IMG/VR virus record: IMGVR_UViG_3300045988_009603
DNA length: 64,000 nucleotides
Origin: a virus
Lineage: Duplodnaviria; Heunggongvirae; Uroviricota; Caudoviricetes
Strand: one strand, 5' to 3'
Notes under the pieces: model-generated
What the model was told of the DNA's origin: nothing
The model's database searches: none
Seen by the model: only the letters and a program-made list of their open reading frames with translations
In this document: positions 2,795-39,901 of the stretch, piece after piece
Layout of the letters: each line of letters opens with the position of its first letter
How positions within the stretch are numbered: the first letter of the stretch is position 1
Program-made: the position numbers and the translations under genes

Positions 2795-2870
2795 TGGAGA
2801 ATCCGAAGGGACTCGAACCCTTATAAACCTGTTTTGCAGACAGGCACATAGCCATTTCTGTCACGGATTC
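2795..2870 (-). tRNA. tRNA-Cys (anticodon GCA)
   Basis: anticodon stem-loop CCTGT-CTGCAAA-ACAGG; T-loop TTCGAGT; U73 discriminator; CCA encoded. Confidence 0.75.
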
Positions 2871-2874
2871 AAAT

Positions 2875-2967
2875 TGGAGGAAGATACCAGACTTGAACTG
2901 GTACACCGATTTCTCAGCTACTGGCAGTTTAGCAAACTGCTCCCTTACCTTTTAGGGTTAATCTTCC
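2875..2967 (-). tRNA. tRNA-Ser (anticodon GCU), long variable arm
   Basis: acceptor GGAAGAT/ATCTTCC; anticodon loop TGCTAAA; T-loop GTTCAAGTC; about 93 nt. Confidence 0.75.
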
Positions 2968-2968
2968 A

Positions 2969-3703
2969 TTATTTCTGTAATGCGTTCTTCATTTCTGGTG
3001 TTGCAATAGTGTCGATTACACCAGTTTTACAAGCATCATCAAACCAGTCTGGTAAGATACCTGCTAAGAACCCATTGATATTCGTTTTAAGGTACTCTGC
3101 AATAAGGGCAGTTTCTTCTTCAATCATCTGCACAACTTCATCTGCATAAGCTGTAATCTTCGAGATACCTTCATTAATCTTACTAACAGCTTGGTTAGCT
3201 AAATCAGAAATAGTATCAAGACCTTTATCAATAGCATCCTGTAAGTCGCTTAATACATCATTAACGCCATCTAGTGTACTGTTAATTGTATCCATAGCTT
3301 TTTGACCATACTCTGTAGCAACACCCATAATACCACTAAATGGTGTACAACCAACTTGCTCTCCTGCTGCACCCATAACATTAGAGTAGCCTTTTGCTAC
3401 CTGCATACGTGATGAAAACTCATCAATGGACTTTTGACCATAATCTGTCAGTGTCTTAGTAGTTGATGTAGTGCTTGTCAGACTCGTTGTAAAGCTATTA
3501 AGCAGAACTGTTGTAAGTCCAGCAGCAATAAGCTTATCCTTTATTGTGGGGTCTGTTACAGAGCTAATAGAGCTTACAAGTGATGTAGAGGCAGCTACGG
3601 TTCCACCTAGAACTGCTGCACCAGTAATAAGGGGATTAGAAAACCCTCTACCGGTTTTTAAGAGATTAAAAATCTCCTTACCTTGTTCTGTCATCTCTTT
3701 CAT
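2969..3703 (-). CDS. hypothetical protein embedded in tRNA cluster
   Basis: ORF track 2969..3766; internal start MKEMTEQ at 3703 preferred because upstream part overlaps tRNA-Phe; Thr/Ser-rich, no recognised domain. Confidence 0.5.
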   Translation of the reverse strand: MKEMTEQGKEIFNLLKTGRGFSNPLITGAAVLGGTVAASTSLVSSISSVTDPTIKDKLIAAGLTTVLLNSFTTSLTSTTSTTKTLTDYGQKSIDEFSSRMQVAKGYSNVMGAAGEQVGCTPFSGIMGVATEYGQKAMDTINSTLDGVNDVLSDLQDAIDKGLDTISDLANQAVSKINEGISKITAYADEVVQMIEEETALIAEYLKTNINGFLAGILPDWFDDACKTGVIDTIATPEMKNALQK

Positions 3704-3719
3704 TAAGCACCTTTGAAAT

Positions 3720-3795
3720 TGGTAGTCCAGTGGGATTTGAACCCTCTTCTCATGTTTTTCAGACACGCGCTTTAACCATATAAGCTACTTGGACT
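3720..3795 (-). tRNA. tRNA-Phe (anticodon GAA)
   Basis: anticodon loop CTGAAAA; T-loop TTCAAAT; A73; T-stem has one non-WC pair so boundaries +/-2. Confidence 0.6.
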
Positions 3796-3801
3796 ATAAA
3801 T

Positions 3802-3877
3802 TGGGGTGACCTACGGGATTTGAACCCGTATAGACCATGTTCACAGCATGGGTCATTACCATTTATGATAAGGCCAC
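3802..3877 (-). tRNA. tRNA-His (anticodon GUG)
   Basis: anticodon stem CCATG/CATGG, loop CTGTGAA; T-arm ACGGG-TTCAAAT-CCCGT. Confidence 0.8.
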
Positions 3878-3908
3878 ATTTAAGGACTCTCGTAAGAACC
3901 CTTAGAAG

Positions 3909-3984
3909 TGGCAGCGGCATAAGGATTTGAACCTTAATAAGACAGCTTCAGAGACTGCTGCATTGCCAGTTATGCTATACCGCT
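3909..3984 (-). tRNA. tRNA-Gln (anticodon CUG)
   Basis: standard cloverleaf, D-stem GCAT/ATGC, anticodon loop CTCTGAA. Confidence 0.65.
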
Positions 3985-3989
3985 AAATT

Positions 3990-4068
3990 TGGTACTCCAT
4001 ATCGGATTCGAACCGATACATAACACAGATTTTAAGTCTGGCCTCTCTGCCAATTGGAGTAATGGAGC
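3990..4068 (-). tRNA. tRNA with anticodon UAA (Leu isoacceptor by anticodon), short variable arm
   Basis: anticodon loop CTTAAAA; D-loop CAATTGGCAGA; A73; T-arm ATCGG-TTCGAAT-CCGAT. Confidence 0.5.
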
Positions 4069-4070
4069 AT

Positions 4071-4146
4071 TGGCGGGGGATGTTGGAATTGAACCAACTT
4101 CTTCGATTTCAAAGACCGAGGTTTTAACCTTGTAAACTAATCCCCT
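4071..4146 (-). tRNA. tRNA-Gln (anticodon UUG)
   Basis: anticodon stem TCGGT/ATCGA, loop CTTTGAA; T-arm GTTGG-TTCAATT-CCAAC. Confidence 0.6.
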
Positions 4147-4154
4147 TTAAATCT

Positions 4155-4712
4155 TTACTTCCTTAGTGGATGAATAAAGAATGCCAACATAACTCTTTCC
4201 CTTGAGAATGCTCTTTCTTCTGGGACAACACTTTTAAGTTTCCATCCAACATAAATTCTCCAGTAGAATTGTTTACCAAAGACTTTAATTGATGGGATAA
4301 AGGCGAATAACCCCCAAGCATTACTGTTCCACATTAGGAGATAACCTGTCTGATTATCTTCATGGTCAGAACTTACGTTGATATTACCTTTCCACTTAGT
4401 AACATCTTTTACATCTCTTCCTAACACATGGTAAGAGAAGTTATAAGCTTTGTTTCTCCAGAGCCATCCAACTCTCTGCAAATAGACACCAAGCTTACCA
4501 ATCTTTCTAATCTTAGCCCATCTTTTAACGTGACCTTCATCACCATCAATTGGGTTGTCATATGTCTCCATCCATCTGAATCCAAAAGGTAGATGTCCTT
4601 TCTTCTCACTATAGAATGGAACTACAAAAGGTGCTAAGATAACTGCTAAGATTGCTGCCAATGGGTCTAGCAAAGCTAGGAAAATCCATGAAGCATACTT
4701 CAAATATCTCAT
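4155..4712 (-). CDS. hypothetical membrane protein embedded in tRNA cluster
   Basis: 185 aa ORF; hydrophobic N-terminus IFLALLDPLAAILAVILAPFVVPF; Trp-rich. Confidence 0.5.
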   Translation of the reverse strand: MRYLKYASWIFLALLDPLAAILAVILAPFVVPFYSEKKGHLPFGFRWMETYDNPIDGDEGHVKRWAKIRKIGKLGVYLQRVGWLWRNKAYNFSYHVLGRDVKDVTKWKGNINVSSDHEDNQTGYLLMWNSNAWGLFAFIPSIKVFGKQFYWRIYVGWKLKSVVPEERAFSRERVMLAFFIHPLRK

Positions 4713-4731
4713 TTAAATAGCCTCTTTAAAT

Positions 4732-4807
4732 TGGCGCAGGATAAGGGATTCGAACCCCTATTAACAGCTTCGTAGACTGTTGCTCTATCCATTTGAACTA
4801 ATCCTGC
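4732..4807 (-). tRNA. tRNA-Arg (anticodon ACG)
   Basis: acceptor GCAGGAT/ATCCTGC; anticodon loop CTACGAA; T-loop TTCGAAT. Confidence 0.75.
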
Positions 4808-4812
4808 AAAAT

Positions 4813-4890
4813 TGGTGTTCCAAGACGGATTCGAACCGTCACTAGTACAAGGTTTGAGCTTGCATCCTCTGCCAATTGGGATACTGGAAC
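4813..4890 (-). tRNA. tRNA with anticodon CAA (Leu isoacceptor by anticodon), short variable arm
   Basis: anticodon stem GCAAG/CTTGT, loop CTCAAAC; D-loop CAATTGGCAGA; A73. Confidence 0.5.
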
Positions 4891-4891
4891 A

Positions 4892-4966
4892 TGGTACTCA
4901 CTAAAGGACTTGAACCTTTTTCTTCATCTTGTAAGGGTGATGTTTTACCATATAAACTAAGCGAGT
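4892..4966 (-). tRNA. tRNA-Val (anticodon UAC)
   Basis: anticodon loop CTTACAA; T-arm AAAGG-TTCAAGT-CCTTT; one C-A mismatch in anticodon stem. Confidence 0.6.
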
Positions 4967-5061
4967 ATGAAAGAGGTCTGAAGTTGTGCCGCTAACTCAA
5001 CTCCGTGGAATTTGTTACGGTCTTCAGTTGACACCAGCGGTCTTTCACTTGACCTCTGAAT
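4967..5061 (-). ncRNA. structured non-tRNA spacer (pseudoknot-like crossed helices)
   Basis: no T-loop motif; crossed complementarities CTGAAG/CTTCAG and GCCGCT/AGCGGT plus outer GAGGTC/GACCTC. Confidence 0.3.
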
Positions 5062-5138
5062 TGGTGCTGCTCACAGGACTCGAACCTGCATTTCCATCCT
5101 TACAAGGGATGTGTAATAGCCAATTATACGAAAGCAGC
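5062..5138 (-). tRNA. tRNA-Thr (anticodon UGU)
   Basis: anticodon stem CATCC/GGATG, loop CTTGTAA; T-arm GCAGG-TTCGAGT-CCTGT. Confidence 0.8.
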
Positions 5139-5139
5139 A

Positions 5140-5553
5140 TTAAACTTTTATGATACCAGCATGTACTTTTCTGTGACAGTTAGCGCACAAGACAATGCAC
5201 TTTCTGATTTCATCTTTTAATCTTTTTGTGGAGTATGAATAAAGTGATGCAGGATTCAAATCTTTCTGGGAAGGGTCTGTATGGTGTAAATCCAATGCAA
5301 CTGGTTCTTTCTCACCACATATATGACATTTGCATAAAGCTTTGTACCTTCTAGCTAGAGTCTTGTTATACTCTCTCTTGAAGTTACGAGTACTTTTAAT
5401 AGCCTCTTTCCTTTTATCATTTGCTTGATAACTCTTTGCATCACGAAGTCTTGCACAGTCTTTGCATTGACTTTGAAGACCATCTTTCTTGTTCTTATTC
5501 TTATGGAATAAGCTTTCATCTTTTGGTATTCTGCAAGTACTGCATATTTTCAT
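5140..5553 (-). CDS. HNH endonuclease embedded in tRNA cluster
   Basis: 137 aa; Cys-rich, LDLHHTDP...CANCHRKVH HNH motif. Confidence 0.75.
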   Translation of the reverse strand: MKICSTCRIPKDESLFHKNKNKKDGLQSQCKDCARLRDAKSYQANDKRKEAIKSTRNFKREYNKTLARRYKALCKCHICGEKEPVALDLHHTDPSQKDLNPASLYSYSTKRLKDEIRKCIVLCANCHRKVHAGIIKV

Positions 5554-5567
5554 ATCACACCTTAATT

Positions 5568-5642
5568 TGGAGCATCCAGAGGGAATCGAACCCTCAACCT
5601 CAGTTTGGAAGACTGTAATTTTCCCGTTTAAACTATGGATGC
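5568..5642 (-). tRNA. tRNA-Gly (anticodon UCC)
   Basis: acceptor GCATCCA/TGGATGC; anticodon loop CTTCCAA; T-loop TTCGATT. Confidence 0.7.
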
Positions 5643-5648
5643 ACTAAT

Positions 5649-5724
5649 TGGTGGAGTCACTGAGAATTGAACTCAGTTACCGAGTTTGCAAAACTCGAAT
5701 TTTAACCATATAAACTATGACCCC
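5649..5724 (-). tRNA. tRNA-Ala (anticodon UGC)
   Basis: anticodon stem CGAGT/ACTCG, loop TTTGCAA; G3-U70 pair in acceptor stem. Confidence 0.8.
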
Positions 5725-5730
5725 AATGTT

Positions 5731-5806
5731 TGGTACAGGTGGAGGGAATTGAACCCATCGTCTTACTGATTAAGAGTCAGCCGCATAACCATTTTGCTAC
5801 ACCTGC
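5731..5806 (-). tRNA. tRNA-Lys (anticodon CUU)
   Basis: anticodon loop CTCTTAA; paralogous to the UUU copy at 6957-7032; T-stem only GGG/CCC. Confidence 0.6.
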
Positions 5807-5813
5807 ATTAATT

Positions 5814-5891
5814 TGGTAGGAGACAAGGGATTCGAACCCTCAAACACCAACTTCTAAGGATGGTAGGTTTACCAATTACCGTCAATCTCCC
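5814..5891 (-). tRNA. tRNA with anticodon UAG (Leu isoacceptor by anticodon), short variable arm
   Basis: anticodon loop CTTAGAA (stem has U-U mismatch); T-arm GAGGG-TTCGAAT-CCCTT; D-loop TAATTGGTAAA. Confidence 0.45.
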
Positions 5892-5966
5892 ATTAAATCT
5901 TTTTAGAGAACTTCTAAGAACCTAAGCAACAAGGTTCCACAACAAGCTGTAATAACCTTAGAAGCC

Positions 5967-5990
5967 CTCTAAAAAGACCTAAATAGGTCT
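5967..5990 (-). terminator. internal terminator-like hairpin in tRNA operon spacer
   Basis: minus-strand AGACCUAUUUAGGUCU followed by U5. Confidence 0.45.
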
Positions 5991-6146
5991 TTGCATAGTC
6001 TTGTTTAATCCGGTGACTAGAACCTTTGGAGAGCTTGATATTATCTCTTCTCCGTGACACCTACTAGGTGCTTTATCAGTGTGTACGACAATACACGAGG
6101 GATACCAAAGCAACATCCGAATGAAGCTTGGCTTTAAATCTTATTA

Positions 6147-6236
6147 GGCGGTAAGTAAAGGAGTCGAACCCTCACCGTATCTCTACAGTGGCAACAGTTT
6201 TCAAGACTGTTTGGCTGCCATTAGCCGCTACCTACC
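6147..6236 (-). tRNA. tRNA-Ser (anticodon UGA), long variable arm
   Basis: anticodon stem ACAGT/ACTGT, loop CTTGAAA; about 90 nt; G73; 3' CC encoded, terminal A not. Confidence 0.7.
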
Positions 6237-6249
6237 CCTAATAAGACTT

Positions 6250-6332
6250 TGGCATGGGACGGAGGAGTTGAACCCCTTTGAAACGGTTTTGGAGGCCGTT
6301 GCTCATGCCTTAGAGTCTTAACATCGTCCCAC
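6250..6332 (-). tRNA. tRNA-Trp-like (anticodon CCA) with extra nucleotides between acceptor stem and D-stem
   Basis: anticodon arm ACGGC-CUCCAAA-ACCGU resembles E. coli tRNA-Trp; acceptor GTGGGAC/GTCCCAT; about 7 nt longer than canonical. Confidence 0.45.
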
Positions 6333-6474
6333 ACTATAATTCGAAGCTTACCGTATTTTCGCAACACTGTAAAGCCCCTTCTCAGATTATTTACATGTTC
6401 TGGAAAACATGAGATACAGACCACCTCCTTACACGGAGACCCGATAAGGTCGTCTAAGCAATCTGCTAACTATT

Positions 6475-6551
6475 TGGCACACCCTACAGGATTCGAACCT
6501 GTAACTAACGATTTAGAAGACCGTTGCTCTATCCAATTGAACTAAGGGTGC
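6475..6551 (-). tRNA. tRNA-Arg (anticodon UCU)
   Basis: canonical D-arm GTTC-AATTGGATA-GAGC; anticodon loop CTTCTAA. Confidence 0.8.
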
Positions 6552-6798
6552 ATTAATCTTTAAAGACTCTCTTAGAAAGCCCTTAAAGATGCCCACCTTA
6601 TTAATCATACCGTGGGCGAGTACGCCAAATTCTTTGATGAGGGATTGGAAGACCTCACTGGTGTTTAGCCTATCAAGCTACTGCCAGAAAAACATTGTCG
6701 TTTGCATTTATTTTAAATTTGCAAAATAGACGCTACGCAACGAAAACTAAGGTTACTATAAAGTGGTCACATGTTAATGTCAACAACTTTATTGAAAT

Positions 6799-6874
6799 TG
6801 GTACTGGTAGGTGGAATCGAACCACCGATGTTCCCTTATCAGGGGAGTGTTATAACCTTCTTAACTATACCAGC
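6799..6874 (-). tRNA. tRNA-Ile (anticodon GAU)
   Basis: anticodon loop CTGATAA; T-arm GGTGG-TTCGATT-CCACC. Confidence 0.8.
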
Positions 6875-6875
6875 T

Positions 6876-6952
6876 TGGAGGTTCAGATGGGAATCGAACC
6901 CACATTCATAGGGCTTATGAGACCCCTGCATTACCTTATCTGCGACTGAACC
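6876..6952 (-). tRNA. tRNA-Met (anticodon CAU; elongator Met or Ile2 not distinguishable)
   Basis: acceptor GGTTCAG/CTGAACC; anticodon loop CTCATAA. Confidence 0.7.
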
Positions 6953-6956
6953 ATAT

Positions 6957-7032
6957 TGGTAGAAGTGGAGGGATTCGAACCCATCGCCTGTCAGATTAAA
7001 AGTCTGCCGCATCACCATTCTGCTACACTTCC
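6957..7032 (-). tRNA. tRNA-Lys (anticodon UUU)
   Basis: anticodon loop CTTTTAA; same unusual T-stem as the CUU copy. Confidence 0.65.
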
Positions 7033-7179
7033 ATTAAATTATCTTTGTAGATAAGCTACCCAGACTTGCTTAAGGTCTGTAGCGATGTGCTTTGTTGGGT
7101 TTAAATCTAGAATTTACCCTTTCACCCTTTGTGGTCGCATACTCACAGGTAAGCTTAATAACTTATCTACAAAGATAAT

Positions 7180-7316
7180 TACCAGACCGTTGTTTATCAT
7201 CTTAAGTGCTACCATTACACCAACTCGACATCTGCCGAGTGAAGGAATCGAACCTTCGCCTTTTCTTTACCGGAGAAATAGATTGTTTAAGTTTTGCTGT
7301 AAACGGTCTTCTGTAA
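7180..7316 (-). ncRNA. tRNA-like element with permuted arm order, enclosed by a terminal inverted repeat
   Basis: minus strand reads terminal stem AGACCGUU, T-arm GAAGG-UUCGAUU-CCUUC, ACUCGGC, AGAU, GUCGAGU, D-arm-like GUGUAAUGGUAGCAC, closing AACGGUCU; no canonical 5'-to-3' cloverleaf. Confidence 0.3.
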
Positions 7317-7490
7317 ATTTGTTGAGCCAGACCAAGTTTTAAATTTTTTCAAAATTAAATTGGCTTGAAAATATCATACGTACTTGCTGAATTTGGTCTT
7401 CTGCTCCTTTAAAGAATACTCGTAAGAACTCTTTAAGGGAGGGGCTAAATAGCCCTCTCAAAACATCATCTTGAAATACTTATTATAATT

Positions 7491-7568
7491 TGGCGGTTAC
7501 GAAGGGATTTGAACCCTCATCATCTCCCGTGACAGGGGAGTATTTTAACCAGATTAAACTACATAACC
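7491..7568 (-). tRNA. tRNA-Asp (anticodon GUC)
   Basis: anticodon stem CTCCC/GGGAG, loop CTGTCAC; G73. Confidence 0.85.
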
Positions 7569-7574
7569 TTTATT

Positions 7575-7662
7575 TGGTGTGCCGTGTAGGAGTCGAACCT
7601 ACCGAGTCTCAATGACAAGGGATTTACAGTCCCCACCGCTACCATCTACGGGATAACGACAC
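7575..7662 (-). tRNA. tRNA-Tyr (anticodon GUA), long variable arm
   Basis: anticodon loop CTGTAAA; T-arm GTAGG-TTCGACT-CCTAC; about 88 nt. Confidence 0.8.
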
Positions 7663-7671
7663 ATTTAAATT

Positions 7672-7748
7672 TGGCGGTTAGTCAGGGATTCGAACCCTGT
7701 GCCATTCGCTTAACAGGCGACCGCACATACCTTATGTGCTTCCTAACC
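7672..7748 (-). tRNA. tRNA-Asn (anticodon GUU)
   Basis: D-stem GCAC/GTGC; anticodon loop CTGTTAA. Confidence 0.8.
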
Positions 7749-7825
7749 TTAATACATTGCCAGACCGTGTTTTTTCTTTTATCCGCAAAAAGTAGTTTGT
7801 TGCTGCATACGGTCTTCTGCAAAAT

Positions 7826-7902
7826 TGGAGGCGGGTGCAGGAGTCGAACCTGCCGATACCATGCTAATGAGACATGTGAGACGCCCTTTCTCTATACCCG
7901 CA
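7826..7902 (-). tRNA. tRNA with anticodon CAU (second Met-type; initiator or Ile2 possible)
   Basis: anticodon loop CTCATTA; T-arm GCAGG-TTCGACT-CCTGC; 1:72 mismatch. Confidence 0.55.
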
Positions 7903-7993
7903 ATTCTTAATGACCAGACCAAATATCTTCTTTGTCCGATTTATCTTCAGATGAATAAGATTAAGTTTGCTGCAATTGGTCTTCTGTCAAAAC

Positions 7994-8071
7994 TGGCGTT
8001 CCAGAAGGGATTTGAACCCTCAAATATCCACTTTGAAAGAGTGGTGACTTTACCGTTTTGTCTACTGGAAC
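7994..8071 (-). tRNA. tRNA-Glu (anticodon UUC)
   Basis: anticodon stem CCACT/AGTGG, loop CTTTCAA; acceptor GTTCCAG/CTGGAAC. Confidence 0.85.
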
Positions 8072-8078
8072 ATTAATT

Positions 8079-8155
8079 TGGTCTCTGTTGGAGGACTTGA
8101 ACCTCCGGCCTTACCGCCCCAAACGGAACGCTCTACCAAGCTGAGCTAAACAGAG
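8079..8155 (-). tRNA. tRNA-Pro (anticodon UGG)
   Basis: canonical D-arm GCTC-AGCTTGGTA-GAGC; anticodon loop TTTGGGG. Confidence 0.75.
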
Positions 8156-17362: not shown

Positions 17363-17924
17363 TGGTGTGATAGATATGAAAAAAGATAACTTAAAAGAAG
17401 TTGAAGGCAACTACCTAGTCCTTGACTGGAATGATATTCGGGAAGCACTATCCGAAGAAAACCTTGACATACTAAAGCAACTTATCTTCTCAGTACGTCA
17501 TACCAGAGGTATTGTAAACGGTAAAGAGCCACTTGAAGGAATCTTTGTAGAGAAGTCTTATCCGTTCTATGAAGACACTTTGCAGAAAGTTAAAATGCAC
17601 TTTAGACAGAAGAACCGTAAAGTGGTCACTATGGTATCTCTTGGTGGACAGAGCATGTCTGTGATGGAAGATATCAACCCTAAGAGACCGAGTAAAGGTG
17701 TTTGTATAAAAATCACAGGTCATGAAGAGTACATCTCAGTGGATGACTTTAGTGCATTCTGTAATGGTTCTGCTGTCTTTAATGGGTTCCACTATGATAT
17801 CCGAGTGTATCCAATCAAGGGAGATGATATCATGATGCAGATATTTGATAACAACAATGGATTTACTCATTTTTATCAGACAACTAAGTCATCACTGAAG
17901 ACAGTTCTGGAAACACTGATTTAA
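17331..17924 (+). CDS. hypothetical protein
   Basis: 197 aa ORF. Confidence 0.5.
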   Translation: MQSQITKFYDNGVIDMKKDNLKEVEGNYLVLDWNDIREALSEENLDILKQLIFSVRHTRGIVNGKEPLEGIFVEKSYPFYEDTLQKVKMHFRQKNRKVVTMVSLGGQSMSVMEDINPKRPSKGVCIKITGHEEYISVDDFSAFCNGSAVFNGFHYDIRVYPIKGDDIMMQIFDNNNGFTHFYQTTKSSLKTVLETLI

Positions 17925-17934
17925 AATATCTTAA

Positions 17935-17961
17935 GAGCCTCCTTAATTGGGGGCTTTTTAA
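17935..17961 (+). terminator. terminator-like hairpin at end of plus-strand block
   Basis: AGCCTCC/GGGGGCT stem followed by TTTTT. Confidence 0.5.
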
Positions 17962-17964
17962 TTT

Positions 17965-19525
17965 TTATAAAATTTCATCGGTTGTCCCAACCTCTGGGTC
18001 ACCATCATATGTGAATAAAATATCTACCCTTCTTAACAACCTTCTTAAGCTTACTCTCTATATAGTTATATAGTACTATATAGTATCTTAGTGTCTATCT
18101 AGTGGTCTTAATAGCCCATCTGTATAACCCTTCTAAACACTCTTCTAACAAGCCTTCTTAACAACCTATACAATCACCTTAACCATCCCTCTACACCCTC
18201 TTAGAAGCTCCTATACACCTCTTAATCTCTATGTCAGCTATGTTACCCTCTATAGATGTTCACTAGGTATTACTAAGCCTCTATATAGTCTGTTTTAACA
18301 AACTTAACAGGAATATCTTTACAGACCTTATCTCACAAGGTCTAACACGGTACTAACAAGGTATCTTATAAGCCTGTTTATGCCTGTATTTTTAAAAGAC
18401 TGTCTAGGTAATTATTCAGAATTTTAAAATTTTTATAAAATAGGGCTATCAAGTCATTTTTTAGGGTCTTTGAAGGAACTCAAAAATATCTGTAGAAGAT
18501 GTATATCTGCTTGGTAGCCCTTAACATCCCTGTAACATCCCCTTTGCAGAATTTTAAAATATCATTAACAATCTCTTAACAGTTGCTACATCTTCTTAAC
18601 GACTCTTCAAAGGTCTTAACAGTTTCTTAACAGAACTAACAAGGCTGTAACAGTTTCTTAACAGTTGATACATAGTCTTTACAGATGCTTAACAGATGAC
18701 TAACAAGAGCTAACAAGTTAATTTTTAAGAGTTATTTTGTAGGGATTGGTAACAATACCAATTAAGATAATTAACAAGTTCCTAACAAGTGTTTAATCTT
18801 TTTAACAAGCTATTAACATGGTCACTATCTCTTTTCTTATCGTTCCCTTTCCCTCTTAGTGATTCTTTAAATAGCCCTCTTAAAAGCTCTCTATAGCTTT
18901 TTGTAAGCTCTTTTAAGCCTCTTCCTAGTAATTACACCCCAACTATGTAGAAAGCTCTTTATAGGGCTTTACAGAAGCTTTAAAGGCTATGTCAAAGACT
19001 CTTACAAGGCTTTTACATGGTTTTAACAGAGATTTAACAAGGGGCTAACAAGTTGCTAACAAGTGTCTTAAAAGCATAACTATGTAGGATTTGTTAAGAA
19101 ATTGTTAAGAAAATGTTAAGGGGGCTAGCATTTACGTAACTTTATAGCCTCTTTTACGTAACTTTGAAGTAACTTCATAGCCCCTATAACATACTTTTAA
19201 AACACTAACAAGCCCTTTCTAGTAGTTCACAAGAGACTAACGAGATGGTAAAGCTTACACCCTTATAAGATTCTTTTAAGGCTCTGGGAAGCTTTATAAA
19301 GGGCTTTTAAGGGTGAGGTAATGCAATCCCTTAAGTTGGGTTGATAAGGCTGTTATAGAGCGTTACAGAGCGTTTAAGGGGTTGCCCTTCCCTTTCGGGT
19401 TATGGGCTTATATTTAAGTTGATTTGATAAAAGGCTATAGAGTAAGCTATAGAGTTATTGCTTTTAAGGTCTAGTAAGATTCTAGGAAGGAAAGGGAAAG
19501 GGTTTGTATAAGGATTGTATAAGAC
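17965..19525. repeat. ORF-free repeat-rich region: YTAACAR(G) iterons, 16 bp perfect palindrome, several direct repeats
   Basis: at least 25 copies of CTAACAAG/CTTAACAG-type heptamers on one strand, often 10-12 bp apart; TATATAGTACTATATA at about 18068; TTTACGTAACTTT x2 at about 19140. Confidence 0.7.
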
Positions 19526-19526
19526 G

Positions 19527-19552
19527 TAAAAAAGCCCCTATTCAGAGGGGCT
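19527..19552 (-). terminator. rho-independent terminator at end of minus-strand small-gene array
   Basis: minus-strand AGCCCCUCUGAAUAGGGGCU followed by U6. Confidence 0.6.
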
Positions 19553-19590
19553 GTAAAGGTATCTGGGGCTATTTAGCCCCGTTGCGTCGA

Positions 19591-19839
19591 TTAGTTGTAA
19601 CCTTGTTTGCTGTAGTACAGGGAGACAATCAAATCACCCCAATAATGGTAATGGTGTTCATCGTTTAATGCCTCTTTTACTGCATCTTTCCAGAAGTCAT
19701 CAGTAGGGTTATAATCTGGAATAACTTGCTTGATAACTGTCTTCACTAATGAAAAACACTCATCAGTCCCACCAATATCAAATTTAACGTCCAGAGTATA
19801 ACAGCCATAAGCATTGACAGTTGCGCGGATAGTTGCCAT
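19591..19839 (-). CDS. hypothetical small protein (array gene)
   Basis: 82 aa ORF preceded by conserved cassette and AGGAG SD. Confidence 0.5.
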   Translation of the reverse strand: MATIRATVNAYGCYTLDVKFDIGGTDECFSLVKTVIKQVIPDYNPTDDFWKDAVKEALNDEHHYHYWGDLIVSLYYSKQGYN

Positions 19840-39453: not shown

Positions 39454-39901
39454 ACTCTTTTCTCCAGAGGTTTTGGTTATCAGAACCACGATATGGTTTA
39501 ACTGTTGGTTTAGATGAATCATACTTACCATCAATCACCACGTCAACATATTTCATCACATCAAGGTGGATTTTTTCGTGTAACTGAAAACCTGTCCAAA
39601 GCCATATAGACTTTTCTGGATAAACAGTTTTAATACGCTTGCATATGTTGGTGACTTCTTGAATGTTTCTGTCATCCAGAGGCTCCCCACCAAGTATTGA
39701 CAGCCCACTGATAGCATTATCATCCATTAACTTAATAATGCCATAGAGGTTTGCATAAGTAAACTCTTTACCAGCATTAAATTTCCAAGACTCCCTGTTA
39801 AAGCAGCCTTCACAGTGATGTTTGCAGCCAGCTACGAAGAGGCTTACACGAACCCCTTCACCATTAGCTGTGTCAAATGGTCTAATCTCCATGTAATTCA
39901 T
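39416..39901 (-). CDS. nrdG: anaerobic ribonucleotide reductase activating enzyme (radical SAM)
   Basis: 161 aa; CKHHCEGC cluster, GGEP motif; collinear with E. coli NrdG. Confidence 0.8.
   Translation of the reverse strand: MNYMEIRPFDTANGEGVRVSLFVAGCKHHCEGCFNRESWKFNAGKEFTYANLYGIIKLMDDNAISGLSILGGEPLDDRNIQEVTNICKRIKTVYPEKSIWLWTGFQLHEKIHLDVMKYVDVVIDGKYDSSKPTVKPYRGSDNQNLWRKEYGWQGDCQWRAE

Follow-up and report, generated by a model that had tools for sequence, protein, structure and literature searches.

Motif arrays in a gene-free region at the putative genome-end junction of a Felix O1-like bacteriophage

Introduction

The 160-bp terminal repeat of bacteriophage T7, reportedly described by Dunn and Studier in 1983, is accompanied by the short-repeat arrays SRL and SRR, and to our knowledge the function of these arrays was never settled. 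Repeated terminase-binding elements are also a feature of pac and cos sites, these include the hexamers of P1 pac, pacL and pacR of SPP1 and the R sites of lambda cosB. Short repeats are likewise found at iteron-type origins, of which plasmid oriV and lambda ori are examples.

Direct terminal repeats (DTRs) have been described in several Felix O1-like phages. Bal31 digestion and run-off sequencing of UAB_Phi87 yielded a DTR of 608 bp, and the large terminases of UAB_Phi87, Felix O1 and wV8 were reported in a clade of DTR-forming enzymes (PMC4837284). The DTR of Pr103Blw was determined as 581 bp with PhageTerm, which was also used in the study that reported DTRs for E9, D4 and H12. Felix O1 possesses a large terminase, gp52, and no recognisable small terminase.

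The DNA analysed here is a stretch of 64,000 nucleotides (IMG/VR record IMGVR_UViG_3300045988_009603), referred to throughout as the window, and its source is a Felix O1-like myovirus (Felixounavirus). A gene-free region of the window contains the same element as the DTRs of UAB_Phi87 and Pr103Blw, here 613 bp in length. The published accounts of these DTRs that were consulted give a size or a sequence and make no mention of arrays, conserved flanks, cut-site blocks or end symmetry. The novelty of the present description is modest: the terminal repeat was already known for the Felix O1-like group, and it is the description of the motif arrays that was not found in the literature searched. Searches of the literature on Felix O1-like phages for their origin, for transcription mapping or for an account of the region returned nothing relevant, and the text of a Bas63 knockout screen, in which genes were targeted, does not mention the region.

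Results

The region between positions 17965 and 19525 contains no ORF of 60 amino acids or more, which bears out the gap of approximately 1.6 kb reported in the initial annotation of the window. The sole ORF of at least 30 amino acids between the stop at 17924 (+ strand) and the gene at 19591–19839 (− strand) is a GTG ORF of 35 amino acids. Two convergent transcription units, each with its own terminator, had also been proposed, and intrinsic-terminator-like hairpins were indeed located at 17933–17958 (+ strand) and 19552–19533 (− strand). The former ends the rightward unit and the latter the leftward unit, and the two bound the non-coding region on the left and right respectively; transcription is thereby stopped ahead of the DTR from both sides. 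In the AYO145A record the left hairpin carries the annotation of a rho-independent terminator. A scan of positions 17800–19700 against Rfam gave three weak matches, all far under the family thresholds, and identified no known RNA, while a sigma-70 promoter scan of the region gave nine sites against 7.5 ± 2.3 in shuffled sequences and no promoter array. The nine proteins flanking the region had no Pfam match and all fell into PHROG families of unknown function. Four of the nine were compared with solved structures and gave no meaningful match; a match of one flanking protein to CsoS2B was set aside, as it covered a short, weak stretch.

Comparison with related phages identifies the gene-free region as a concatemer junction, composed of a left unique flank (17965–18512, + strand), a DTR of 613 bp (18513–19125, + strand) and a right unique flank (19126–19525, + strand). 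The records of E9, SPJ41, CRP22 and NBSal004 carry repeats that are 100% identical at both ends, measuring 580, 613, 579 and 694 bp respectively, and the DTR of the window matches these repeats. BLAST places the ends of the E9, SPJ41 and CRP22 records exactly at 18513 and 19125, NBSal004 shares the boundary sequences of 18513–19125, and in the SPJ41 record the copy of the repeat at the right end is preceded by the same sequence as the left flank. At least seven further records, among the 60 matches listed, start or stop with the DTR element; it begins at position 1 in five of these seven and at position 15 in BPS15Q2, and in Seyj1-1 it terminates at the end of the record. The ends are fixed and sequence-specific rather than circularly permuted, the boundary nucleotides being identical in four independent records. 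PC79-13, which ends near the left boundary, was excluded as evidence, as its 127-bp 'repeat_region' resembles an assembly overlap.

As the GenBank entry for UAB_Phi87 does not start at the physical ends, the sequence printed in the supplementary figure was used for comparison. This printed DTR is the reverse complement of window positions ∼18511–19117; its ends are 2 and 8 nt off the boundaries derived from the records, the Sanger-derived right end falling short of the NGS-record boundary by 8 nt, and 614 bp separate its boundary blocks. The physical genome ends, which went unrecognised in the initial annotation, become apparent from the repeats of the relatives and from the DTR of UAB_Phi87. 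The repeat is present in a single copy in the window, between both unique flanks, as in a replicative or concatemeric form, and we infer the ends of the window's own phage from relatives with 73–94% identity.

The left cut-site block (18501–18527, + strand) consists of GTATATCTGCTT followed by GGTAGCCCTTAACAT, with the predicted cut between 18512 and 18513. The left boundary nucleotide is the same in E9, SPJ41, CRP22 and NBSal004, and the 27-mer carries no more than three substitutions, all past the cut, in 10 relatives belonging to three genera. Positions 18505–18524, which span this cut, form the only 20-nt block with a conservation of 1.00. The right cut-site block (19113–19140, + strand) consists of ATGTTAAGGGGGC followed by TAGCATTTACGTAAC, with the predicted cut between 19125 and 19126. 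Both boundary blocks are near-invariant in three genera and the cut sites are the best-conserved spots of the region. When the mature ends are read inwards they are similar, 5′-GGTAGCCCTTAACATCCCTGTAACAT and 5′-GCCCCCTTAACATTTTCTTAACAATTTCTTAACAA, and TGCTW precedes both cuts; the inverted likeness of the two sites is short and requires a gap of 2 nt. Hairpin or cruciform potential was no better than in shuffled sequences, either at the cut sites (z = 0.1 and −0.2) or at the 16-bp palindrome of the left flank (z = −1.0), and a hairpin intermediate of the T7 style was set aside for want of sequence support.

Strict copies of YTAACAR within 17965–19525 number 23 on the + strand and two on the − strand; the initial annotation had counted at least 25 copies of YTAACAR(G). 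The expectation from 1000 dinucleotide-preserving shuffles of the region was 1.18 ± 1.04 with a maximum of five, an excess of ∼20-fold. The motif reaches a density of 14.7 per kb in the region, compared with 0.38 per kb for the + strand of the rest of the window, and the count for the whole window (82, with 70 expected) gives no excess beyond the region; no clusters were found elsewhere in the window, nor was the motif found upstream of other genes. A position weight matrix added degenerate copies, bringing the total on the + strand to ∼36. Start-to-start distances between copies peak at 11 bp (15 pairs), followed by 22, 31/33 and 42/44 bp, and of the arrays detected by Tandem Repeats Finder nine have a period of 11 and two a period of 10. 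These values agree with the phasing of 10–12 bp noted previously and place its mode at 11 bp; to call the motifs iterons is premature. The columns of the TAACA core are conserved at 0.90, compared with 0.85 for the spacers, and the per-position conservation profile peaks at T-A-A-C-A.

The left flank holds six strict YTAACAR copies, at 18033, 18145, 18158, 18295, 18304 and 18353, in addition to an AT-rich block and units of the CTATATAG type. The perfect 16-bp palindrome TATATAGTACTATATA described in the initial annotation is present at 18067–18082, within a tandem of CTATATAGTA with a period of 10 (18058–18085), and the 20-nt block around it (18065–18084) has a majority conservation of 0.98 across 12 phages. 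The most AT-rich 40-mer of the region (18403–18442, 12.5% GC, conservation 0.88–0.98) contains CAGAATTTTAAAAT, a second copy of which is located at 18547, just within the DTR.

The DTR carries 16 copies of YTAACAR on the + strand and two on the − strand. Directly inside the left cut are two phased copies of CCCTTAACAT with a period of 11 (18518–18541, + strand). The right cut has three inverted copies of TTGTTAAGAAA directly inside it, also with a period of 11 (19091–19120, − strand, conservation 0.89–0.96). The main unidirectional array (18565–18819, + strand) comprises 12 strict and several degenerate copies, mostly 9–11 bp apart, and is split by a lineage-variable palindromic insert at ∼18745–18764. 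Further to the right, six units with an exact spacing of 11 bp occupy 19001–19063 (+ strand), beginning with CTTACAAG and TTTACATG and continuing with strict YTAACAR at 19023, 19034, 19045 and 19056. The DTR thus has 18 strict copies in total, 16 of which, including those of the arrays at 18565–18819 and 19001–19063, are located 50–500 bp from either cut.

The right flank contains one YTAACAR, at 19205, and other short repeats which are also ∼11 bp apart. These consist of TTTACGTAACT in approximately four copies (19131–19175), YTTWWAAGG-type units (19258–19315) and GTTACAGAGC in approximately two copies (19352–19374). The further repeats listed in the initial annotation were each recovered: TTTACGTAACTTT at 19131 and 19153, AGAGCGTT at 19357 and 19367, CTATAGAG at 19435 and 19447 and GGAAAGGGAAAGGG at 19489. 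The TTTACGTAACTTT unit, 33 bp in length, was duplicated locally and recently, and its conservation is low (0.48–0.56).

A comparison with related phages had been proposed when the region was first described, and it showed that the region is kept across three genera, in which the conservation of the left flank, the DTR and the right flank in each case equals or exceeds that of the neighbouring genes. Almost the whole of the left flank can be aligned with Suspvirus and Mooglevirus phages (76–78% identity), the right flank has 74–88% identity with other genera, and the non-coding region as a whole also gives 74–88% across genera; the flanking genes align in part only. The length of the repeat ranges from 558 to 694 bp among the relatives by means of indels inside the arrays, namely an indel of ∼33 bp at 18745–18764 and a duplication of 80 bp in NBSal004, which indicates that copy number is not critical. 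The DNA of Erwinia phage phiEa104 barely aligns and yet retains arrays of TTAACA at the corresponding position of the genome, where there are 18 copies of TTAACA (0.8 expected), seven of TGTTAA and 12 of TTAGAA (1.5 expected), with recurrent spacings of 10–13 bp; the sequence GTATATCTGCTT is also present. On this basis a terminal repeat is predicted in phiEa104 from ∼2472 to ∼2914.

Discussion

As linear DNA begins and ends within it, the region is regarded here as one of DNA-end formation and packaging and not as a demonstrated replication origin. It is probable, in our judgement, that the region is the genome-end junction of a Felix O1-like phage and that the arrays are putative cis-acting sites for the formation and packaging of the ends. 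The initial annotation had offered three readings, an origin, a binding array for partition or packaging proteins and a regulatory sink, of which the packaging option is favoured by the DTR at 18513–19125 and by the position of the arrays on and around the cuts. A partition site is implausible for a virulent phage and the flanking proteins include no ParAB-like matches, and there is no support for a regulatory sink.

We infer that the arrays act as protein-binding sites in end formation and packaging. The YTAACAR arrays and the 11-bp-phased motifs of the right flank would be candidate cis-acting sites, at which the phasing could allow protein to bind side by side on roughly one face of the helix. 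The binding protein may be the terminase, or a recognition partner that takes the place of the missing small terminase. Its role would be to flag the junction and to guide two strand-specific nicks, which would be separated by 613 bp and each located 6–8 nt 5′ of a short inward-pointing run of TTAACA. Strand-displacement synthesis across the repeat, a step which belongs to the textbook model for T7 and T3, would then give a full repeat at both ends of every packaged genome. The positioning of nicks alone needs no arrays 50–500 bp from the cuts, an observation that counts against the packaging reading.

A more specific form of this proposal is put forward tentatively, and we consider it possible rather than probable. 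The arrays may constitute a loading platform of ∼1.6 kb for a recognition protein that replaces the missing small terminase and sets the two strand-specific nicks one repeat-length apart; such a platform might also be a replication origin. If this were so, the T7 SRL and SRR arrays would, by analogy, at last be given a function.

Origin function has nothing specific in its support. The arrays, alone or besides a function at the ends, could be origin iterons at which a phage or host initiator binds and opens the AT-rich block. The phased direct repeats do adjoin the conserved 40-mer of 12.5% GC at 18403–18442, a combination that is not confined to origins, and the region is gene-free and shielded from transcription. 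Secondary origins are located close to the genome ends of T7, and no paper locating the origin of Felix O1-like phages was found in our search. The initial annotation had recognised no DnaA-box-like sequence; one relaxed box, TTATTCACA, is in fact present at 18010–18018 (− strand), but DnaA-type boxes are not enriched, with seven in the window against 11.6 expected. GC skew, which had been suggested as a check, follows gene orientation in the window and carries no origin signal, and the strong negative skew at 18001–19000 is due to the one-stranded motif. No initiator was recognised among the nine flanking proteins with Pfam and PHROG. The arrays are, moreover, organised about two cuts, the right one of which is accompanied by inverted copies, an arrangement that an origin leaves unexplained, and we consider origin iterons unlikely. 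A protein bound to the arrays might instead act on the ends of the incoming or resident genome, by protecting them from RecBCD, controlling DNA ejection or pairing ends for concatemer formation. The terminal repeat of T5 offers a precedent in its repeat-rich injection-stop region, through which ejection is controlled. The arrays are mostly inside the repeat and so are present at both ends of virion DNA, where inward-pointing TTAACA units lie within 6–8 nt of the tip. However, the left and right unique flanks, each of which is found at one end only, are conserved equally well, and we know of no end-acting protein or two-step ejection in Felix O1-like phages; this explanation appears quite unlikely.

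We regard it as very unlikely that the repeats are functionless products of slippage or unequal recombination in a stretch that must be non-coding, with selection on the cut sites only. Processes of this kind would fit the range of repeat length (558–694 bp), which arises from the ∼33-bp indel and the 80-bp duplication of NBSal004, and the recent duplication of the poorly conserved TTTACGTAACTTT unit. Against this, the core of the motif is conserved above its spacers, the whole 1.6 kb is conserved no worse than the neighbouring genes, and the same hexamer is present at ∼20-fold excess in phiEa104, where the surroundings have diverged beyond alignment. The resemblance of TTAACA to the −35 hexamer TTGACA, from which it differs by one base, together with some promoter-like matches in the region, could point to a non-coding RNA or to a sink for promoters or sigma factors. 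The promoter-like sites are no more frequent than the shuffles described above would give, no Rfam family reached threshold, both sides are shielded by terminators and the motif does not precede other genes of the window; an explanation of this kind is extremely improbable.

The location of the junction shows annotators where Felix O1-like genomes truly begin and end, as most of the ∼250 records in GenBank start at some other point, and the exact cut-site sequences may be used to orient new assemblies. Several GenBank records carry spurious small ORFs in the gene-free stretch. Despite its empty appearance, the 1.6-kb stretch matches the genes in strength of conservation and is therefore unsafe for insertions, a caution that is relevant to the engineering of Felix O1-like phages for therapy or diagnostics. 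The arrays also provide a concrete DNA bait for a packaging-recognition factor in a group with no recognisable small terminase.

Phased direct repeats beside an AT-rich block are shared with iteron-type origins, but here there is no recognisable adjacent initiator gene and the arrays coincide with the genome ends. The pac and cos sites resemble the present region in that short repeated motifs flank the cut, some of them oppositely oriented on the two sides. In the phages concerned a small terminase or gpNu1 has been identified and the ends are permuted or cohesive, whereas the present ends consist of exact repeats and no small terminase is recognisable in Felix O1.

The closest analogue is the CCTAAAG arrays (SRL and SRR) that flank the terminal repeat of T7. 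Both systems have a short exact repeat, arrays of a 7-bp motif on one strand inside the repeat and in both flanks, regular spacing and non-coding genome ends. When the T7 sequence was inspected for C[CA]TAA[AG]G, all copies were on one strand, with four inside the 160-bp repeat (17, 41, 60 and 94), 11 to the right (175–355) and five to the left (39621–39700), commonly 13 bp apart. The systems differ in motif and spacing (CCTAAAG at 13 bp in T7, YTAACAR at 11 bp here) and in the size of the junction (∼450 bp against ∼1600 bp), and most copies are outside the repeat in T7 and inside it here. The right flank described here also uses motifs other than YTAACAR, and the flanks of T7 carry promoters, of which none is evident in this region. 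No Autographiviridae records were among the DNA matches listed; the T7 family is unrelated, and the T7 arrays are therefore considered an analogue and not a homologue. The parallel between them suggests a common design among phages whose terminal repeats are short.

Position of the physical genome ends

A database DNA search with 1.7 kb around the gene-free region (17965-19525) matched 257 phage records, nearly all of which were Felixounavirus (Felix O1-like myoviruses) from Escherichia, Salmonella, Shigella and Citrobacter; query coverage was at least 80% in 198 and identity was mostly 78-93%. The organism name of one matching record begins 'Staphylococcus', which suggests a mislabelled or contaminated record. 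Several matching records break off inside the region at one shared query position, and both ends were retrieved for four of these, E9, SPJ41, CRP22 and NBSal004. Each harboured a repeat with 100% identity at both record ends, of 580, 613, 579 and 694 bp respectively. All four end repeats correspond to window 18513-19125 with identical boundary nucleotides, the left cut falling before 18513, between GTATATCTGCTT and GGTAGCCCTTAACAT, and the right cut after 19125, between ATGTTAAGGGGGC and TAGCATTTACG. Seven further records among the 60 matches listed start or stop with the repeat element. The window carries a single repeat copy between both unique flanks, as expected for assembly through a concatemer junction. 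These data demonstrate that 18513-19125 represents the physical genome ends, in position and exactness.

Independent experiments agree with this assignment from record ends. The UAB_Phi87 repeat was determined as 608 bp by Bal31 digestion and run-off sequencing (PMC4837284), and the sequence printed in Figure S1B of that paper corresponds, in reverse complement, to window ~18511-19117. In the UAB_Phi87 record the boundary blocks lie 614 bp apart, a discrepancy with the printed repeat of 2 nt at one end and 8 nt at the other. A terminal repeat of 581 bp was assigned to Pr103Blw by PhageTerm. PhageTerm was also run in the source study of E9, D4 and H12, which reported direct terminal repeats, and the Felix O1 paper inferred short terminal repeats from genome size. 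PC79-13 (OR687644.2) is labelled circular and has a 127-bp 'repeat_region' at each end (L004 1-127 and L005 2374-2500); this was rejected as a terminal repeat, as it looks like a k-mer assembly overlap. Even so, the PC79-13 record is opened within the true terminal repeat, at about window 18542-18658.

To the left of the region, rightward genes run up to 17924; to its right lies a block of leftward genes, the last of which is 19591-19839. The Felix O1 paper provides a map with four transcription units, on which we infer that the region lies where two units converge, between genes 23 and 24. Terminator-like hairpins close both units, as the initial annotation had proposed, and the same two were annotated by the authors of AYO145A. 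The absence of ORFs of 60 aa or more was also borne out, the gap holding a single 35-aa ORF. Several GenBank records, differing from one another, annotate ORFs of 25-66 aa here (L006 241-1157 in E9, L023 295-1082 in UAB_Phi87 and L015 655-1276 in ESh21), which are probably over-annotation. Elsewhere in the window, 26 tRNA genes form one block on the − strand (2795-8155), including two tRNA-Met, three tRNA-Leu and two each for Ser, Gln, Arg and Lys.

Phased motif arrays

Strict copies of YTAACAR, one of the features on which the initial annotation had rested its putative origin or protein-binding array, numbered 23 on the + strand and two on the − strand of 17965-19525, against 1.18 ± 1.04 (maximum 5) in dinucleotide-preserving shuffles. 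The + strand density was 14.7 per kb in the region and 0.38 per kb elsewhere, and no excess or cluster was found in the remainder of the window. Spacings peaked at 11 bp and its multiples, in keeping with the phasing originally described, and the palindrome and all other repeats named with it were found in place. Of the arrays identified by TRF, nine have a period of 11 and two a period of 10; some are made of other units, e.g. AAGCTCTTTT, TTTACGTAACT and GTTACAGAGC.

The left flank (17965-18512) contains an AT-rich block, six YTAACAR and CTATATAG-type units with the 16-bp palindrome. The repeat (18513-19125) opens with two phased CCCTTAACAT units, followed by the main one-strand array (18565-18819), a central part with other period-11 units (~18820-18995), a six-unit array spaced at exactly 11 bp (19001-19063) and three inverted units (TTGTTAAGAAA, 19091-19120) just inside the right cut. 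The right flank (19126-19525) has different motifs, likewise ~11 bp apart. Read inward, the mature ends are alike (5'-GGTAGCCCTTAACATCCCTGTAACAT and 5'-GCCCCCTTAACATTTTCTTAACAATTTCTTAACAA), and TGCTW precedes both cuts; this symmetry is short, requires a 2-nt gap and is suggestive only. CAGAATTTTAAAAT occurs only twice in the window, at 18417 (96 bp before the left cut) and 18547 (35 bp after), both copies within well-conserved AT-rich segments.

Conservation and length variation

The region was conserved in an alignment of 12 sequences from Felixounavirus, Suspvirus and Mooglevirus, with a mean majority conservation of 0.85. The sole 20-mer at 1.00 was 18505-18524, spanning the left cut, and the right cut block reached 0.96; across ten relatives scanned, the boundary 27-mers had at most three (left) and five (right) substitutions. 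TAACA core columns scored 0.90 against 0.85 for other columns (Mann-Whitney p about 1e-5, a guide only since alignment columns are not independent), and the per-position profile peaked on the five core bases. Left flank, repeat and right flank aligned near full length with other genera at 74-88% identity, whereas the flanking genes aligned only partially, at identity no better. Block 19375-19424 of the right flank is conserved at 0.95-0.96, and its hairpin potential as single-stranded DNA is above chance (z = -2.3, equalled by 6 of 200 shuffles).

The length of the repeat differed between relatives: boundary blocks were 558-601 bp apart in one set of relatives and 614 bp apart in UAB_Phi87, and the repeat was 613 bp in SPJ41 and the window and 694 bp in NBSal004, differences attributable to the insert ATTGGTAACAATACCAAT and other indels. 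This palindromic insert (18745-18764, inside the repeat) is lacking from most aligned relatives (block conservation 0.15). At the left record end of NBSal004 (L021 364-492), the repeat contains an 80-bp internal duplication (copies 98.75% identical, offset 49 bp), which in part explains its unusual length.

Only about 84 bases of Erwinia phage phiEa104 (Kolesnikvirus) could be aligned with the region. At the corresponding genome position this phage has a gene-free gap of 1.4 kb with 18 TTAACA on one strand (0.8 expected) and seven inverted copies toward the right; GTATATCTGCTT is kept and spacings of 10-13 bp recur in the arrays. That the motif persists where the sequence around it has not is an argument that the motif itself is under selection. 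The right flank of the presumed phiEa104 repeat (L018 3025-3322) has 12 TTAGAA(G) (1.5 expected), spaced 10-12 bp within clusters, and the window has looser YTTWWAAGG-type units ~11 bp apart at 19258-19315. These right-flank motifs may represent a second binding specificity.

Interpretation of the arrays

We infer that the arrays are putative cis-acting protein-binding sites by which the packaging machinery would find the concatemer junction. The ~11-bp spacing would allow protein to bind side by side on roughly one helix face, with its orientation set by the inward-pointing units beside each cut. A pair of strand-specific nicks, separated by the length of the repeat, would then allow strand-displacement synthesis to duplicate the repeat. 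Weak points of this mechanism are that the majority of motif copies lie far from the cuts, that indels in the arrays cause the repeat to range between 558 and 694 bp, and that folding against shuffles found no hairpin potential at either cut. In Felix O1 the large terminase is gp52 and a small terminase is not recognisable.

An iteron-type replication origin would share the phased repeats and the AT-rich block at 18403, but these are generic features; no initiator gene was recognisable among nine flanking proteins searched against Pfam and PHROG, four of them also against solved structures, and DnaA boxes were not enriched. GC skew was uninformative, and a literature search found no paper locating the origin of Felix O1-like phages. 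An origin role, one of those first suggested, is thus unsupported and less probable; the centre of the region is the genome-end repeat. A role as an RNA or promoter sink likewise gained no support from Rfam and promoter scans.

The terminal repeat of Felix O1-like phages is already known, its sequence being printed in a supplement, and a specialist would not find the junction surprising. In the searchable literature no description was found of the motif arrays in these ends, the conserved flanks, the invariant cut-site blocks or the retention of all three across the subfamily. The region is of use for annotation and phage engineering, and could help to identify the missing recognition factor.

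By analogy, the region is a concatemer junction of the T7 type, with arrays of short repeats. In the standard model for T7 and T3, nicks and strand-displacement synthesis duplicate the terminal repeat. The T7 sequence itself was checked: every copy of C[CA]TAA[AG]G in these arrays is on the same strand, with four inside the 160-bp repeat (at 17, 41, 60 and 94), 11 at 175-355 and five at 39621-39700, and 13 bp is a common spacing. The junction design is shared, but motif, spacing, size and phage family differ, which makes T7 an analogue rather than a relative.
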